Sequence record: PZ445527.1
Length of the DNA stretch: 64,000 nucleotides
Source: a phage
Direction: 5' to 3' (one strand)
Shown here: in pieces, positions 1,081 through 28,939 of the stretch
Position numbering within the stretch: position 1 is the first letter of the stretch
How the letters are laid out: each line of letters starts with the position of its first letter
Notes under the pieces: model-generated
Told to the model about the DNA's origin: nothing
Seen by the model: only the letters and a program-made list of their open reading frames with translations
The model's database searches: none
Translations under genes and position numbers: made by a program

Positions 1081-1572
1081 ATGGCTGATCCAAGAGTTAC
1101 TGTAGAATACCTTTGGAATAGATATGATTATAGGGATGGACTGCTAATAAATAAGCAGACTAGGGGTAGGATGAAAGCAGGAGTACCTGCAGGTACTCCT
1201 AATAAGGCCGGATATCTAAGGGTTACTTTGTTCCAGAGGCAAGAGTATGTTCATAGACTGATATTTTTTATGTTCAACAATTATTGGCCAAAGGAAATAG
1301 ACCATATAGATAGAGATGTTAGTAATAATAGAATAGAAAATCTAAGAGACTGTTCTAGATCCCAGAACATGGCTAATAGGTCTAGCCCAAATACAGTTAG
1401 AGGAGTCCATTTTAATGGTAGTAGCTATATCGCTAGAATTGGCAATCCTTTCAGCAGAAAAACTGAGTATATTGGTAGCTATCCAACTGAAGAAATTGCG
1501 GCAAAAGCCTATGATATTAAAGCAAAAGAATACTTCGGAGATTTCGCAGTATTAAATTTCCCAGAGGAATAA
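1081..1572 (+). CDS. HNH homing endonuclease with AP2-like DNA-binding domain
   Basis: HNH motif EIDHIDRDVSNNRIENLR; C-terminal AP2-like segment YIGSYPTEEIAAKAYD. Confidence 0.75.
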   Translation: MADPRVTVEYLWNRYDYRDGLLINKQTRGRMKAGVPAGTPNKAGYLRVTLFQRQEYVHRLIFFMFNNYWPKEIDHIDRDVSNNRIENLRDCSRSQNMANRSSPNTVRGVHFNGSSYIARIGNPFSRKTEYIGSYPTEEIAAKAYDIKAKEYFGDFAVLNFPEE

Positions 1573-2929: not shown

Positions 2930-3372
2930 TTAAAATTAAGTTAACTCATCCAGATTGTATGCCTAAGATTGGCTCTGAAGATGCCGCAGGTATGGATCTG
3001 CGAGCATTCTTTGGTACTAACCCTGCCGCAGATTTACGTGCTATTGCACCAGGCAAATCCTTAATGATTGACACCGGTGTCGCGGTGGAAATTCCGCGAG
3101 GTTGGTTCGGTTTGGTGGTTCCGCGTAGTTCTTTAGGAAAGCGCCATTTGATGATCGCAAACACCGTAGGAGTAATCGACTCAGACTATCGTGGCACTAT
3201 TAAGATGAACCTCTATAATTATGGTTCTGAGATGCAAACTCTGGAGAATTTCGAAAGACTTTGTCAGTTAGTAGTAGTACCACACTACTCAACTCATAAT
3301 TTTGAAATTGTTGACGAACTAGGGGAGACTAATCGTGGGGAAGGCGGATTTGGAAGTTCAGGAAGTAAATAA
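2926..3372 (+). CDS. dut: dUTPase
   Basis: dUTPase motifs AGMDL, RSS, IDSDYRG, GGFGSSG; start overlaps D15 stop. Confidence 0.9.
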   Translation: MIKIKLTHPDCMPKIGSEDAAGMDLRAFFGTNPAADLRAIAPGKSLMIDTGVAVEIPRGWFGLVVPRSSLGKRHLMIANTVGVIDSDYRGTIKMNLYNYGSEMQTLENFERLCQLVVVPHYSTHNFEIVDELGETNRGEGGFGSSGSK

Positions 3373-3612
3373 TTTTACTGATCCTAATATGGTAAGGTCC
3401 TTTGAACATTCTTCTGCTATAACAAGCATAATGATATGTAAAAGAACCATACGTAAACAATGTAGTTCTTAAATAGGTCGTGAAGGCAATGTAATCTATT
3501 GGAATGAAGGGGGCTTTTGTTGAATTGTGTGGCAATTCGGAAGATCATATACTTAGAGCTATGTTAGCCGTATTTAAGTTAGGTATTATTGCTGGTAGTA
3601 GATAATAATAAA

Positions 3613-3644
3613 CCCCGGTGGACAATCCACCGGGGTTTTCTTTT
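3613..3644. terminator. bidirectional rho-independent terminator between convergent dut and tail-fibre genes
   Basis: hairpin CCCCGGTGG-acaat-CCACCGGGG followed by T-run on + and A-run upstream (T-run on -). Confidence 0.7.
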
Positions 3645-5826
3645 ATTTAGCAAGAAGTTGTTTTACTAGTTCCTTGAGTTCGTCAATTTGCTTCTGTTGT
3701 GCTTGAATACAACCTAAAAGATCCATTACAATTGGGTTAATATCTACACTAGGTCTATCTTGATATTCCTCCCCGATCTTGTTTCCTTCGTCATCAAAAA
3801 CCTCGGTTCCTGGTATTGGGAATTGGTTGTGTTTTATATATTGAGGCGCTATTTTTTCCGCATCCTCAGCAATTATCCCAAATCTAACACGTTGTTTTTC
3901 ATCATCCTTATAAACGAAGTTAACCATTTCAAGGTTTGTAACTCTTGATAGAGCCTCATTGCTATCTGCGGTTGAAATATCCTTTTTATACTCCCTTCCT
4001 GAAGTACCTTGAACTGCAAGAACACCACCTGTACTTGGAAGGGTGTTAATAAATTGATTAGTGTTATCATATATATTTCTTTGTACAAAATAAGGAGGAT
4101 TTCCAGCTAGCGAAGGTATCTCAAAAGATACTCTTGCTCCAATATCTGTTGAGCCACTTCTACCAGTAGCAGCTATCTCAACTCTAGGGTAAGAATTTTG
4201 TTTCAAAAAAACACAAGTTCCATTAATACTAGCATTAGAGTATAACTCAGCGAAAATGTTAACTGTTGCGTCTTCACCTATTTGAAGAATCTTTTTCCTA
4301 TAAGACCCGTCTGCTTTATATGAGTGGGCCGAAAGACTTCCGTCTGTTTCATGACCTAACCTAATAGCAGCTGTCCCATCTTCTCTATAAAAAGCAATCC
4401 ATTGATTAACTGACGCACTAGGACGCAACATAACAATAGCTTCCGAATTTAGGAATTTTTGCGTTTCCTCCCATTGTCTACCAATCTTTTGCCTTGCTTC
4501 TGAGGCTGTTATTGCTCCAGTTCCACCTCGCTCAATAGCAAGAGGTTTTGACTCTCCAGTAGTTGACTGAACGCCCCACTTGCCGTTATTGGCAATAAAC
4601 ATGCTAAGATTGCCATCAGGTGATGTAATCTGATTGAACTTGCCAGCATCTGTACCTGTAGTACAAAAAACTCCTTGCACCCCAAGATTTACCTTTGCGT
4701 CTGTTACATTCCTTGCGCCAGTACCTCCTTTGGCAACTGCCAAAGGTATAAACTGTTTACTGGTATTATCATAAGCACCCCATCCCTGTAGGTCATTAAT
4801 ATATAAATGGTAATTACCATTACCACTTTTTATTTGAGTCTCTCCACTAGGTAATTGAAAGTATCTATTAATTTGATTATCAAGAACTCCCTTCCACCAA
4901 ATAGCTCCAACATTTTTTGTCCAGCGATAGCTATATAGTGTCCCAGTATAATCACCAACAAATACCCCAGTGTAACCATGGACGCCGTCCATAGCAGAGA
5001 TAAAACCAGCTAATACGTTTTCTGAAGAAGCAATACTTGGATATCCAGTAGTTGTACTCTTAACAATACGTATAAAGCCTAGAAATTCAGATGGTTCAAC
5101 AGTAATATCAGAAACGTGTCTTGGAGAATCCCCAAGACCTATAGAAGCTTTCATACCAGAAGCTACATTTTCAGCTTTAGTAGCAGATGCCGCCGCATTA
5201 GTTTCTGAGGTCTTAGCATTGGTTTCTGATGCTTTAGCAGCATTAGCACTGTTAGCAGCAGCAGTTTTACTATTATTAGCATTAGTTTCTGAAGTTTTAG
5301 CAGCAGAAGCAGATGCAGCAGCATTAGTTTCTGAGGTTTTTGCTGCTGAAGCAGATGCAGCCGCAGCAGTTTTGCTACTATTAGCATTGGTTTCTGAGGT
5401 TTTTGCAGCCGTCTCACTAGCTTTTGCATTGGTTTCTGAAGTTTTTGCAGCCGTCTCACTAGCTTTTGCGTTAGTCTCAGAAGTTTTTGCGTTAGCCTCA
5501 GAAGTTTTGGCGGCTCCAGCACTGTTAGCGGACGCAGTAGCAGAAGAAGCAGACTGAGTTGCAGACTGCTGAGAAGATGCCGCAGAAATTTCTGCTTCAT
5601 TTTCAGAATCTTTAGCATTTAGCTCCGACTGTTTTGCATTAATTTCAGATTGCTTAGCTGCTGCAGCAGATGCTTTAGAAGACTCTATAGCAGAGACTAG
5701 CTCTCCTGCTGTAATAGAGCTGATTGTACTTCCCAGAACTATAGTATATTTAGGATATTTACTTGCAGTTATACTATTCTGGTCCATAGTGACCATTTGC
5801 TGTAAAATTATTTTAGTTATAGCCAT
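3643..5826 (-). CDS. L-shaped tail fibre protein (pb1-like) with C-terminal intramolecular chaperone (peptidase S74-like) domain
   Basis: N-terminal Ala/Ser/Thr-rich repeats (AKTSETNAKASETAAK...); C-terminal auto-chaperone-like domain; first gene of the late operon. Confidence 0.75.
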   Translation of the reverse strand: MAITKIILQQMVTMDQNSITASKYPKYTIVLGSTISSITAGELVSAIESSKASAAAAKQSEINAKQSELNAKDSENEAEISAASSQQSATQSASSATASANSAGAAKTSEANAKTSETNAKASETAAKTSETNAKASETAAKTSETNANSSKTAAAASASAAKTSETNAAASASAAKTSETNANNSKTAAANSANAAKASETNAKTSETNAAASATKAENVASGMKASIGLGDSPRHVSDITVEPSEFLGFIRIVKSTTTGYPSIASSENVLAGFISAMDGVHGYTGVFVGDYTGTLYSYRWTKNVGAIWWKGVLDNQINRYFQLPSGETQIKSGNGNYHLYINDLQGWGAYDNTSKQFIPLAVAKGGTGARNVTDAKVNLGVQGVFCTTGTDAGKFNQITSPDGNLSMFIANNGKWGVQSTTGESKPLAIERGGTGAITASEARQKIGRQWEETQKFLNSEAIVMLRPSASVNQWIAFYREDGTAAIRLGHETDGSLSAHSYKADGSYRKKILQIGEDATVNIFAELYSNASINGTCVFLKQNSYPRVEIAATGRSGSTDIGARVSFEIPSLAGNPPYFVQRNIYDNTNQFINTLPSTGGVLAVQGTSGREYKKDISTADSNEALSRVTNLEMVNFVYKDDEKQRVRFGIIAEDAEKIAPQYIKHNQFPIPGTEVFDDEGNKIGEEYQDRPSVDINPIVMDLLGCIQAQQKQIDELKELVKQLLAK

Positions 5827-6248
5827 TATTGAGTTACCCCATCACTAATATAAACTTTGCCTTCCATAATACGGAAAGAACTAGCAGCACTACCAACAGC
5901 TGTTCTAGTAATAATTACATCATAGTATCCAGCTAATCTCTGTCTAGGATTATATCTATCTCTTTCTTTGGATGCTTTGGAAGCAATAGTAGTTACAGCA
6001 CTAACGGGTAGACTTATAGATGCTACTCCTTGCTTCGCATCAACAATAGATGTAGTAAAAGATGCTAAAGTTTCAGCCCCATCTTCTAGATTGCTTTTAA
6101 TAGTACCTCTTAAAGAGAAACCAGTAAGGTCTACCGGTTTAGATGTAGAGGGATAAACACTATCATCCACATCCATAAATTGCATAAGTAAACCATAAGG
6201 TACGTTCTCGTCTACTACTAAATCAATAACTCTATTTTCTGTACTCAT
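5826..6248 (-). CDS. collar/baseplate-associated protein (T5 p132-like)
   Basis: 140 aa; position between tail-fibre and pb4-like genes matches T5 order. Confidence 0.55.
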
Positions 6249-6252
6249 TATT

Positions 6253-8355
6253 TTACCTTATATGGATATACCCGTTTTGCAGGTCTATCTTCATTTTGTA
6301 GGATCCCTCTGGGTTAGAGGATAGTGCTGCTGCACGATCATATATAATATTTACACCAATTTGTGATAAGAAAGCATTGTTAGCAACAATTTTACTAGCA
6401 GTTACCGTGCCATTAACTATCATATCCCCGTGTAAAACCATTGCAGGACTAGCCCATGCCGAACCATTCCACTGCCTAGTAAACGCTGTTCCTGGTGCTC
6501 CACTTTTATACTCGGTTAATACATCATATTTAACAGGGCCAGTACCAAAGTTAGATGTAAAGAATGAATTAGCTTGTGAATCATTCCATGCTGTTAAATT
6601 AGCGATAGCAAGAGAATACATTCCTGGACCACGTTGTCCTGTATCTCCTGGCCTACCATCAGCACCAGGTTTACCATCAGCCCCCGGTCTACCATCAACA
6701 CCTTCTGTACCACTCCATTGAACTACGTCTGACCAGCTAGTTCCAGATACTAATTGATTAGTAACAGGATCTAAAGTACCTGTAGAACAGTAAATATTTT
6801 GAGTATTAGATGTTCTATTAGGTGGAGTTTTTGACCAACCTGAAGGTGGATATGCAGGGCTTGTAGGTTTAGCAGGTAGTGAGGTTCCTAGAGTATAGAT
6901 AAATACTGTTTGCTTACCTTGTATACCTGTTGCTATATCGATGTCACCGTTAGGTGTACCAATTACAACCCCACTAGAGATTCTTAATGTATCACCGTCG
7001 TAACGAATGTACTGGGTAGCATTGCCAATATCCAGTTTTGGTTTAGCAGTAGCATTATCCATACCCATCCAGATACCAGATCTTGTATCACCCCAAGTTT
7101 TGCCTTGAGTATAAATTGCTGGATTATCTTGACCAGTTAGATTGGTCATAACAAAATTCGCAGCATTTATAGTTTTAGTGATTACACTACCATCAACGTT
7201 AACTATCTTTTTAATAGGGTCAAAAGATATTGGTGCTTTTCCTTCTGCATCTAGAAGACCTATATTAATAGCACCAGTAGCAGCATCTATCAGGAAAGTT
7301 TGTTTCCAAGTAGAACCATCTTTGATCTTGCCCTTAATATATGCGTAGTTTACCTCAATACCGGTTTCGTTTACAAAACTGTTATCTAGTGGAGTATCTT
7401 CCTTTAGTATAAAAGTTTGTACAGCAGAGTCGGTAGTATCCTGCTTACTTGGTCCCCAGGCAATAGACGACACTTTAAATTTATGCTCTACTTTCCACGG
7501 GAATGATATAATTGTTGCTGATTGGGCAGCACCCACATTAATTTTTTGTGCTTTAGTCCATCCAGTTCTTGCAAACTCTGCTGAATCTATATAGGATAGA
7601 ACAAACTCACGAACATTAGCCCCTGCACCTCTATTCCAATCCCACTGAACACGCAAATCATAGCGTTCTTTACCATCTGCAATGCGCGCTGCTTTAAACT
7701 CAATATTAGTGGGTGCGGTAGGAGGAACAAAATTATAGTTAACTTCAAAGACAGTAGGATACTCATAGTATCCAGATGAATCAATAGTAACACCGTCTGG
7801 TAGGCTTATTTGACCAGAAATTCTTACTTTATAGAATCCGATTGGTACGCCACCAAACATAATAGTTGGCATCAGTGCACCAACGTAATATTTAACCCAC
7901 GGGTTATTGGCATTAGAATTATTCTTTAATTCTATAGTACAATAATCGGCCTCCCCTGTAGTATCTATATAAACTATGGGGGCCCCAACCCCAACATCTA
8001 CTGGTTCTGACTCGCATCGAGCACCTGTGATTCTAGGTGCTGATTTCATTTTAAAAGTTTGCTTATCAGATAGATTAATTCCTATCTGTGCATTAAGAAG
8101 TTCAGAGTCTATTATGGAATCATAAAATGCACCCTGAACTTCATAAGTTGTTGTAGGTTTTAGATTATTAATAGTTACAGAGAAAGTATCAACACCCGTG
8201 AAGTCTCTACGAGTAATATTACTACCTTCTTTTAGCCAAAAAGATCTGCCTATAACGTCATAATCTGAGTAAATAGAATGCTGGATATACGCCAACGTAT
8301 ATCCAGTTAAGACGCTATTTAGAACCATTTTAGCTGGTGCATTATTTGAGATCAT
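6253..8355 (-). CDS. baseplate central fibre protein (pb4-like) with collagen-like repeat
   Basis: 700 aa; Gly-X-Y run [24 protein letters not shown]; synteny. Confidence 0.65.
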
Positions 8356-27151: not shown

Positions 27152-28939
27152 TTAGGTAAGGCGTTGAATTGTTACTCTTAATCTAGGTAAGAAGACGGCG
27201 GCGGATTCATTTGCATGTATAACTACACCCAACTCAGCGTTACCGTTACCCAAATTTTTAATAGTATAAATAAACCCACTTCTAGTAAATGTTAAGTCAT
27301 CTGGTCGACTAGCCCACTGTTGTGTATAACTATAGGAAGCTGTAGTATGAAATGGCACCAAATGATTAGGAGGTAGAGTTAATATTTGATGAAATATCCC
27401 ATCACCTCCTGTATAACTTTGCTGCCTTCTCCCCTGCACCTGCCATGCAGTGCCACCATATGTTCGTATAGGACCCCCTGCTGTATTAAGGTTTCCAGCA
27501 ACCACCTCAGTAGTTAGGATTACTGTAGAGTTTGCATTTGGTAGCCCAAGACTTACTGTGGATAAGGCTACATACTTATTACCTGTACCTGGGTAAGAAG
27601 GGTTTATGTCATCACCTATGTAAGTACTAGCTACGTTATTCGGTAGTAATCGTAAAGGTACTGAAGAAGGCCCCCAAACGACCCCGTGCTCATTACCTAT
27701 AGTATTATTGTTGGAATTAACATACCATTGTTTACCGGCAGAGAATTTGTAAATACTTATCTGAGACTTAGAACCCCCATAATTTACGGGAGACCATAGA
27801 GAGCCATTATTAGACCCCACAATTTCGCATCTTGCTGTAGTATCTCCAAATACTCCAGTATAAGCAACGTTATTTCCAATATATTCCATATCAGGTCTAG
27901 ATGATAAGTTACCAAAGGCATTCTGATTAATGAATTTGTAACTAGTATTTGGAAGACTAACACCTTTTATAGTAAAGTTAGAGGGGCTTATAAGAATATC
28001 GGATCCAGTAAATGGGTTACTAGCAACGCTCATACCACCATTAGAATATCTAAGGTTCAGCACATACCAGATAACTTTGGTTGGAGTAATATTATAACTA
28101 TCTTGCACATACTGCTTCTTTGCTGCTTGTGATGCTAAGTTAGACGTTGAGCCTCTACATACATAAACCTTATCTGGATAGGTTGAAGAATTATATAGTA
28201 CACTAACATTACTTGGCGTAGTACCCTTTTTACCAGCGTATCCACGTATATTGGAGTTACAAACATAAAACCAAGTATGCCCCCTTTTCCCCGCCCCTAT
28301 AGGAGCCTGCCAGTTAGGGTGCCAGAAGTCAACATTACCACTATTTATCGATACTTTAGATGCTCCGGCTGGAAATCCTGCTAGAGTCCACGCTCTGCCC
28401 ATAGCTTCGGCGGCGTACGCCCCTCCTGGTCTGTATAAGTTAAACCCAGAAGCCTGTGATATAGTACCGCCAGTACCTTGTCTAGCTATTGATTCTTCAT
28501 GCCCTAGACTAGAGTTATAAGTATAAGTACCATGTGCTAAACTATTACCAGATGCAAAAGCTGATGTAAGACCTACTTCAGCACCAGCCCTACCAATAGG
28601 AGGGTCTTCAAAAAATGCAAGAAATTGTCCAACCTGGGATTGAGTACCGTTCAAAAAACCACGATGAGTACCATTAATTTCAACAGCGGTTAGTATAACT
28701 CTACCAGGATCGTTGCTCTTTAGATTAGCTATTACAGAAGGCATTTGGCACACAAAGAACCCATTACCCGCGTTACTTAATGCACTCTCATACGTACTCT
28801 CGACTAGAACAAATGGCATATCAGAATGAAATATAGTATTGGCGTTAGGAGTTTTGTGAGCATTAATATCCCCACCATTCACCTTGTTTAGTGATAATAC
28901 AGTTTTACCATCACTATATTTTCCAGCGAAAAAACCCAT
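27152..28939 (-). CDS. receptor-binding tail protein (pb5-like)
   Basis: 595 aa Gly/Ser/Thr/Asn-rich; divergently paired with lipoprotein gene as in T5 oad-llp. Confidence 0.65.

Follow-up and report, generated by a model that had tools for sequence, protein, structure and literature searches.

The window analysed here, 64,000 nucleotides of phage DNA from sequence record PZ445527.1, carries a lateral tail fibre gene, ltf, in a setting familiar from phage T5 (Table 1). PHROG calls on the neighbouring genes place ltf directly 3' of ltfC/p132, within a pb3-pb4-ltfC-ltf block that adjoins dut. The PHROG name matched by the ltfC/p132 product is 'collar tail protein for L-shaped tail fibre attachment', and a Pfam LtfC domain is present in the syntenic gene of relatives. 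The order dut/terminator/ltf/ltfC/pb4/pb3 is identical in T5 and in two metagenomic T5-like contigs (L003 and L004), and a bidirectional terminator is annotated in T5 at the position equivalent to the one found between ltf and dut.

Table 1 Features of the ltf locus, with positions in the 64,000-nt window.
Feature	Position	Strand	Basis
ltf, lateral (L-shaped) tail fibre precursor, 727 aa	3643..5826	(-)	ORF list and translation
ltfC/p132 collar gene, stop overlapping ltf start	5826..6248	(-)	PHROG, E 6.5e-33
Bidirectional intrinsic terminator between ltf and convergent dut	3610..3638	both strands	13-bp stem, T runs
N-terminal segment, aa 1-38, predicted to insert into LtfC collar	5713..5826	(-)	identity and DT57C LtfA alignment
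Ala/Ser-rich heptad rod, aa 39-224, putative three-helix coiled coil	5155..5712	(-)	heptad table, 21-nt periods
Extra heptad AKTSEAN, aa 106-112	5491..5511	(-)	7-aa insertion unique among compared relatives (N-terminal alignment)
Post-rod domain A, aa 225-318, beta-rich	4873..5154	(-)	identity to relatives
Connector module 1, aa 319-370, GGTG end at aa 367-370, left breakpoint	4717..4872	(-)	motif and DNA homology
Orphan connector module 2, aa 371-433, without close relative	4528..4716	(-)	protein and DNA comparison
Second GGTG and rare distal domain, aa 434-608, putative receptor-binding tip	4003..4527	(-)	DNA homology and identity
Peptidase S74 intramolecular chaperone, aa 609-727	3646..4002	(-)	Pfam PF13884, dyad and fold
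Spurious antisense ORF over heptad array, 112 aa	5219..5557	(+)	low-complexity mirror translation
Second spurious ORF over heptad array, another frame, 151 aa	5163..5618	(-)	low-complexity mirror translation

The ltf product matched PHROG tail-fibre families with E values down to 4e-113 and DT57C LtfA (PDB 8hqz) with an E value of 2e-86, or 6e-37 for domain 1 of that protein; its aa 1-223 are 68% identical to T5 pb1. The open reading frame is a real gene, the lateral tail fibre gene of a Tequintavirus-like phage. The original prediction, made from the letters alone, had called it an L-shaped fibre about half as long as T5 pb1. The fibre is indeed T5-type, as seen in the synteny with ltfC, pb4 and pb3 and in the N-terminal homology to T5 pb1 and DT57C LtfA, and its 727 aa amount to 52% of the 1396 aa of pb1. 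An exact look-up found no record of the whole 727-aa protein, and no relative had its full-length architecture, the best matches spanning at most 62-73% of the protein.

At the N-terminus, aa 1-45 are 93-100% identical to many T5-type fibres. In the DT57C cryo-EM structure, the N-terminus of LtfA contributes beta-strands within the LtfC ring, ahead of a helix that starts at T40 and makes a three-helix coiled coil (PMC10713586). The corresponding part of the ltf product runs into 25 uninterrupted in-phase heptads of the form A-x-x-S-x-x-x (aa 50-224, window 5155-5679), with Ala or Ser at position 1 in every heptad and Ser at position 4 in 24 of the 25. Among them are AKTSETN (six copies), AKASETA (two), AKASETN and AKTSEAN, in line with the AK(T/A)SETNA-type N-terminal repeats first noticed in this protein. 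By analogy with DT57C, the heptads would form a trimeric coiled-coil rod, which would extend beyond the short stretch resolved in that structure. Ala or Ser at both core positions makes for an unusual coiled-coil core.

On the DNA, Tandem Repeats Finder picked out 21-, 42- and 105-nt periods across 5195-5509 (top score 257), and a repeat search listed 11 copies. These are spaced at multiples of 21 nt throughout the array (5150-5526), the exceptions being the two outermost intervals of 30 and 117 nt. The tandem array is thus real, and because it occurs in many independently assembled relatives (93-94% protein identity), it is not an assembly artefact. To call its DNA repeats near-identical, however, was an overstatement: copies are 61-91% identical, the 21-nt units average ~57% pairwise identity and no exact repeat exceeds 29 nt. 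The two ORFs that overlie the array are spurious, as had been proposed: Pfam assigned neither to a family, and their few PHROG matches are marginal and reflect composition; the description of such frames as antisense fits the first, whereas the second lies in another frame of the same strand as ltf. In the N-terminal alignment, which shows the extra heptad of ltf (Table 1), T5 is likewise set apart from the other fibres by 7-aa indels.

At the other end of the protein is a genuine S74 intramolecular chaperone. Residues 610-663 scored 37.9 bits (E 2.2e-9) with Pfam Peptidase_S74 (PF13884), above the gathering score of 22. Ser609 and Lys614 (codons at 4000-4002 and 3985-3987) align with T5 Ser1264 and Lys1269, T608-S609 aligns with T5 T1263-S1264, and neither S609 nor K614 varies among 30 aligned sequences. 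An alignment-based AlphaFold2 (AF2) model was confident for the chaperone only, with pLDDT of 83-95 for the residues from about aa 615 onwards and 67 over the ten residues that include Ser609 and Lys614; a C-terminal helix follows the chaperone domain in this model. The prediction agrees with the fold of such chaperones, in which a mixed alpha/beta domain is combined with a beta-hairpin and a C-terminal coiled-coil helix. Foldseek matched the modelled chaperone to the MyRF ICA domain (7dc3, E 8e-7) and to the endosialidase K1F chaperone (3gw6, E 2e-5), both with probability 1.0, despite sequence identities of 12-20%; the domain upstream of the ltf chaperone is unrelated to endosialidase. The chaperone domain foreseen in the original prediction is therefore present with its Ser/Lys dyad intact, and autoproteolytic release after trimer folding, by cleavage between Thr608 and Ser609, is predicted.

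Between rod and chaperone, the product is assembled from parts with different relatives. Residues 225-334 are 91-95% identical to the fibres P0001, P0003, P0004 and P0006 and 63-82% identical to other T5-type fibres, and the first connector carries a motif, R-x-x-Q...ET...WG.Y...PL....GGTG, that recurs in relatives. DNA homology to the P0001-type locus (L003) breaks off in the last codon of this GGTG (ltf nt 1109). Homology to Kenya-K18 and L004 starts again at nt 1300, the first codon of a second GGTG, from which aa 434-608 are 85-90% identical to the fibres of K18 and P0002. For the connector in between, we found no DNA homology in K18, L003 or L004, and the best protein identity among the best 120 homologues was 54-58% (aa 398-458). 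The gene is thus a three-part mosaic with breakpoints exactly on two conserved GGTG motifs, a recombinant whose proximal part (aa 1-370) is of P0001 type, whose aa 371-433 are the orphan connector and whose tip and chaperone (aa 434-727) are of Kenya-K18/P0002 type.

The closest known relatives of the distal part, the fibre of Salmonella phage Kenya-K18 (WCZ57323.1) and the metagenomic P0002 (1183 aa), share the distal domain and chaperone at 85-98% protein identity. Within the gene, K18 DNA is ~94% identical to this stretch, and the K18 and P0002 loci are 90-92% identical when the alignment runs into the downstream flank. Both contain a module of ~300-370 aa (SVGAGDWMEIAAP...) that the ltf product lacks, along with more connectors ahead of the tip. 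In the K18 record the chaperone is frameshifted by 2 bp, whereas the ltf ORF is intact. The distal domain itself is rare: an index-free search gave only 10 matches among 1.84 billion representatives, and K18 alone among 50,697 phage records carried the whole domain. A word-index protein search with the domain came back empty even though P0002 and K18 carry it, which reflects a limit of the index and not absence. Pfam assigned no family to aa 225-608, the distal domain had pLDDT below 50 in the alignment-based model, and a single-sequence AlphaFold2 run on aa 225-727 was unusable (pLDDT 34). No homology was found between the distal domain and the bullet domain of T5 pb1, and it is the position of the domain that suggests a role in receptor binding.

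In the ltf product, this rare domain of ~150 aa is joined directly to the connectors, and the extra modules that add 300-600 aa to relatives are absent. Such a layout could in principle mark a deletion derivative and no natural functional variant: either a defective or crippled fibre that was selected while the phage was grown on a rough laboratory host, or an assembly collapse between repeated connector modules. The ltf gene of T5-like phages is a documented deletion hot spot, in which DT530(1) and DT571/2-ABF arose through recombination and fibre-less mutants reached ~30% of clones on C600 (PMC4728585); the present product is a length outlier among T5-type fibres, and both of its junctions lie on repeated GGTG motifs. 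The gene is not, however, a simple deletion of any sequenced relative: the 63 aa between these junctions are an orphan segment at most 58% identical to anything found. Exact DNA matches between connectors 1 and 2 do not exceed 7 nt and the two are not linked by any direct repeat, so an assembler collapse or a recent intragenic homologous deletion between them is implausible, and we rejected both. The gene also keeps its frame and every functional motif. Moreover, two independent short fibres of LtfB type, P0121 (524 aa) and P0122 (520 aa), carry this distal domain too (46-52% identity), placed immediately after connector or linker motifs and ahead of a similar chaperone, that of P0121 being nearly identical to the ltf chaperone by inspection. 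The compact layout therefore exists elsewhere in nature, and we consider a deletion derivative unlikely. The N-termini of P0121 and P0122 differ from that of the ltf product. In P0121 this part resembles the product of the second fibre gene in Epseptimaviruses, so its tip cassette sits on a different scaffold.

The original prediction had looked instead to variation in the number of Ala-rich repeats as a likely route by which fibre length and host range change. Copy number does vary, from 7 to 39 strict heptads among 44 T5-type fibres; indels relative to T5 and other fibres are whole heptads, including the one found only in ltf; and in DT571/2-ABF a change in the copy number of a different, 19-aa motif reportedly had a compensatory effect. 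Yet the ltf array is of modal length, with 24 strict heptads (25 by the in-phase table) against a family mode of 23, and its low-complexity region of 181 aa compares with a family median of 186 aa. In a set of 45 T5-type fibres, those with longer repeat regions tend to be shorter overall (r = -0.36), and repeat length accounts for little of the length variation (variance ratio 0.13). The 21-nt units are also too diverged for frequent slippage (mean 57% identity, longest exact repeat 29 nt), and the specificity-determining regions of T5-type fibres map distally (PMC4728585, PMC4690869). Gain or loss of whole heptads occurs in the family and would alter the length of the rod, not receptor specificity. 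Repeat number as an account of the compact size or of host range is not supported, and we regard it as slightly less likely still than deletion. The shortness of the fibre comes from what follows the rod: the ~400 missing aa are distal modules lost or replaced through recombination at the GGTG motifs. No S74-bearing fibre among the best 120 homologues is shorter than these 727 aa (the next has 840 aa), and the function of so short a fibre is therefore putative.

Comparison with the two best-described systems separates what is conserved in the ltf product from what is not. T5 pb1, whose distal domain and chaperone structures have been described (PMC4690869), has the same genomic position, N-terminal collar-binding segment, Ala-rich heptad rod and C-terminal S74 chaperone, with a Thr-Ser scissile bond and Lys at +5. 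It has 12 strict heptads rather than 24 and no GGTG connector motif, and beyond aa 223 of the ltf product we detected no similarity to pb1, its bullet-shaped polymannose-binding domain (970-1263) included. DT57C LtfA (PDB 8hqz chain d, 1076 aa) shares the N-terminal lasso segment and the putative coiled coil of the ltf product, and its last ~185 aa, comprising a pre-chaperone region and the chaperone, align closely and share the motif QGTSG(R/I)EYKKD; it differs in an LtfB docking site and ~600 aa of other central modules. That ltf encodes an LtfA-type scaffold of a branched two-protein fibre, on which LtfB supplies additional receptor binding, is highly improbable. Such fibres do exist in DT57C and many Epseptimaviruses, and many of the homologues are short T5-type fibre proteins (630-807 aa), but these have no S74 domain whereas the ltf product has one. 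No ltfB-like gene follows ltf, the terminator and the convergent dut lying directly 3' of it, and tblastn with LtfB-type N-termini over the 64-kb window matched only ltf itself; since the window has no second fibre gene, we rejected the branched system.

The three-part recombinant reading remains, in which ltf probably encodes the precursor of a short homotrimeric lateral tail fibre. Following this logic, aa 1-38 would be inserted into the tail-tip collar of LtfC (p132), and aa 39-224 would form a three-helix coiled-coil rod of ~25 heptads, roughly 27 nm long at canonical helical rise. Residues 225-318 would form a small domain, followed by the two GGTG-bounded connectors of ~52 aa (aa 319-370) and 63 aa (aa 371-433). 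The distal tip (aa 434-608) would most likely bind a surface glycan, the O-antigen, and speed adsorption; T5-like lateral fibres bind O-antigen, and the ltf locus is hypervariable (PMC8594841; PMC4728585). The chaperone (aa 609-727) would trimerize and template folding of the preceding domain, and autocleavage after Thr608, dependent on Ser609 and Lys614, would then free it to leave a mature fibre of 608 aa.

The gene is of an ordinary kind, and the known picture of how T5-type fibres work is unchanged by this allele. What is unusual is that ltf is a short three-part recombinant that keeps the usual rod and folding domain and has lost the long middle, so that a rare distal domain and the shortest S74-bearing architecture of the best 120 homologues come together in one allele. 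We tentatively propose that the GGTG-bounded connectors may be in-frame recombination joints that move a cassette of tip and chaperone between LtfA- and LtfB-type scaffolds, and that ltf may represent a near-minimal functional fibre. If so, its rod, small domain, two connectors, 150-aa tip and chaperone would offer a natural template for fibre-swap engineering. T5-like lateral fibres decide which O-antigen types a phage penetrates, and their alleles therefore matter for host-range prediction and phage engineering; recombination joints placed to the codon on a conserved motif provide a testable design rule for swapping fibre tips.

The window is a portion of a T5-like phage genome; over its first 20 kb it is collinear, with 91-93% identity, with Tequintavirus genomes including T5, Bf23 and Kenya-K18. 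Residues 1-223 encoded by the ORF at 3643..5826 (-) are 68% identical to T5 pb1, and the product as a whole matches DT57C LtfA (PDB 8hqz, E 2e-86), which identifies it as the lateral (L-shaped) tail fibre gene (ltf). An unbroken ORF and a gene order identical to that of T5 and two metagenomic T5-like contigs bear out this call, which had been made from the sequence alone. The fibre is also about half the length of T5 pb1, as had been stated (727 aa versus 1396 aa).

Features of the window and segments of the ltf product
Feature	Position	Strand	Size	Remarks
ORF with HNH_3 endonuclease domain	1081-1572	+	163 aa	E 2.4e-14
T5.132 homologue (DUF7369)	3335-3605 (3335..3472, 3504..3605)	+		Broken over two frames; just downstream of dut
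Bidirectional terminator	3610-3638		13-bp stem	Downstream of ltf, between it and convergent dUTPase gene
Overlapping ORF	5163..5618	- (other frame)		Over heptad array; low-complexity mirror image of repeat
Overlapping ORF	5219..5557	+		Over heptad array; low-complexity mirror image of repeat
ltfC/p132		-	140 aa	Stop overlaps ltf start; match to collar protein for L-shaped tail fibre attachment
pb4 and pb3 homologues				Upstream of ltfC/p132
pb5-type receptor-binding tail protein	27152-28939	-	595 aa	phrog_4815, E 7e-266
ltf product, segment	aa 1-224			Closest: family-wide, 93-100% identity
ltf product, segment	aa 225-~385			Closest: metagenomic fibres P0001/P0003/P0004/P0006, 91-95% (aa 225-334), 74-83% (aa 335-~390)
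ltf product, segment	aa 398-458			No close relative; identity at most 58%
ltf product, segment	aa 459-727			Closest: P0002, 90-98%; Kenya-K18, 85-98%

Between D13-like and D14-like genes, the HNH_3 ORF probably represents an inserted free-standing homing endonuclease; Kenya-K18 and two metagenomic relatives lack this stretch (about 485 nt) but are otherwise collinear in its flanks. The split T5.132 homologue suggests either a pseudogene or a frameshift introduced by sequencing. The pb5-type protein is the phage's terminal-receptor binder, with FhuA, BtuB or FepA as candidate receptor.

DNA homology to the metagenomic locus encoding P0001 extended from the upstream tail genes through ltf nt 1109, where it ended sharply; homology to Kenya-K18 and the P0002 locus restarted at ltf nt 1300. 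The first breakpoint falls on the last codon of one GGTG motif (aa 367-370), the second on the first codon of another (aa 434-437). GGTG ends a connector module of some 63 aa that is found repeatedly (...R-x-x-Q...ET...WG.Y...PL....GGTG.....EAR.NL); it flanks differing domains in most relatives but is not present in T5 pb1. Together, segment identities and DNA breakpoints show that ltf is a three-part mosaic of a P0001-type proximal part, an orphan connector, and a K18/P0002-type tip and chaperone. Kenya-K18 and P0002 carry a 300-370-aa module ahead of the tip, whereas the ltf product has none. A short ltf could a priori also be a deletion derivative or an assembly collapse, and ltf deletions readily appear in culture (PMC4728585); however, what lies between the junctions is an orphan and not the leftover of a known parent, and the two connectors have no common exact string longer than 7 nt. 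Searches of phage records and a 5.8-billion-protein collection and an exact look-up returned no full-length match to this mosaic. The gene family is well known, and ltf is a new, compact recombinant allele within it.

Variation in repeat number had been proposed as a route to changes in fibre length. The repeats form 25 heptads in unbroken register (aa 50-224), with Ala/Ser at position 1 in all 25 and Ser at position 4 in 24; units include AKTSETN (six times), AKASETA, AKASETN and AKTSEAN. On the DNA, periods of 21, 42 and 105 nt were found at 5195-5509, and within the array (5150-5526) the 11 members of the repeat family are spaced by multiples of 21 nt, the two outermost spacings (30 and 117 nt) being the only others. 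The array is genuine, far beyond chance, but 'near-identical' overstated the likeness of its copies, which are 61-91% identical (57% mean pairwise identity for 21-nt units; longest exact repeat, 29 nt). Because the same array recurs at 93-94% protein identity in many independent relatives, the repeats are not an assembly artefact. The two ORFs overlapping them belong to no family, save for marginal compositional matches, and are spurious, as anticipated.

The helix of DT57C LtfA begins at T40, in a three-helix coiled coil projecting from the collar (cryo-EM; PMC10713586). By homology, aa 39-224 would form the proximal rod, with a length of roughly 27 nm at canonical helical rise. Its presumed core positions (aa 50-224; 5155-5679 (-)) are small and partly polar; long trimeric coiled coils rarely have such a non-hydrophobic core of Ala/Ser and Ser, but the family keeps it throughout. 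This AAKxSE-type stretch also matches N-terminal regions of the solved depolymerases 7vyv, 7vz3 and 7lzj.

Among 45 fibres sharing the T5-type N-terminus, the low-complexity rod of this one is near the median (181 versus 186 aa), whereas its total length is not (727 versus 1138 aa); rod and total length correlated at r = -0.36, and rod variance was 13% of total-length variance. By strict count the product has 24 uninterrupted heptads, against a family mode of 23 (21 of 44 proteins; range 7-39). Heptads are indeed gained and lost in the family, as proposed: the heptad at aa 106-112 is found in no other aligned relative, and whole-heptad indels also separate T5 from other relatives. Such changes nevertheless do not account for the compactness, given the near-normal rod and heptad number. 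The deficit lies after the rod, in a part of 503 aa here versus about 800-1000 aa in relatives. Some relatives (fibres P0008, P0023, P0034 and P0035) have 32-39 heptads, the excess in P0008 arising from a duplicated rod block of about 110 aa, so that large block duplications occur besides single-heptad changes. Among the 120 best homologues, the fibre is the shortest bearing S74 (next, 840 aa); those of 630-807 aa lack it.

The predicted self-cleaving chaperone is upheld as an S74 member by Pfam score (Peptidase_S74, aa 610-663, 37.9 bits versus gathering score 22), catalytic dyad and fold. T5 pb1 is cut at Thr1263-Ser1264, with the serine activated by Lys1269 (PMC4690869). The aligned residues in the ltf product are Thr608-Ser609 and Lys614, so that the Ser/Lys dyad, whose loss was to have refuted the chaperone reading, is retained. 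When 29 relatives were aligned with the product, just five columns proved invariant, Ser609 and Lys614 among them. AlphaFold2, with an alignment including 29 relatives, gave pLDDT 83-95 for the chaperone (about aa 615 to the C-terminus) and an average of 67 over ten residues containing Ser609 and Lys614. Only two Foldseek matches were significant: the MyRF ICA domain (7dc3) at E 8e-7 and, at E 2e-5, the intramolecular chaperone of K1F endosialidase (3gw6); each had a probability of 1.0. With the predicted cleavage after Thr608, the mature fibre would be 608 aa long and the chaperone 119 aa. In Kenya-K18 (OQ291031.1), a 2-bp AT insertion relative to the window in the ATATATAT run (about 7200-7215; window about 3840) cuts short the annotated chaperone domain at ...APQYI; the record either has a sequencing error there or reflects a true frameshift.

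Few proteins carry the distal domain (aa ~445-612). When 1.84 billion representatives were scanned with HMMER, free of any index, 10 matched at E <= 1e-3 and no more than three at E <= 1e-10, and among 50,697 phage records the whole domain occurred only in Kenya-K18, a Salmonella phage. Pfam has no family for it, and structure prediction gave no confident model. T5-like fibres recognise specific O-antigens and can be dispensed with on rough hosts (PMC8594841; PMC4728585); on that basis and from its position, the domain is the putative receptor-binding part. In its two best representatives, the LtfB-type short fibres P0121 (524 aa) and P0122 (520 aa), connector/linker motifs run straight into the distal domain and a chaperone. 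The direct layout is thus not confined to ltf, and this speaks for a functional compact fibre; the P0121 chaperone is nearly identical by inspection to that of the ltf product. At its N-terminus, P0121 resembles the second fibre gene of Epseptimaviruses, so that the tip-plus-chaperone cassette is found on different scaffolds. That the ltf product is itself part of a branched LtfA/LtfB fibre is improbable, since no second fibre gene was found downstream of ltf or elsewhere within the 64-kb window. As a mosaic, ltf illustrates textbook tail-fibre evolution by module exchange, with unusually clean breakpoints.
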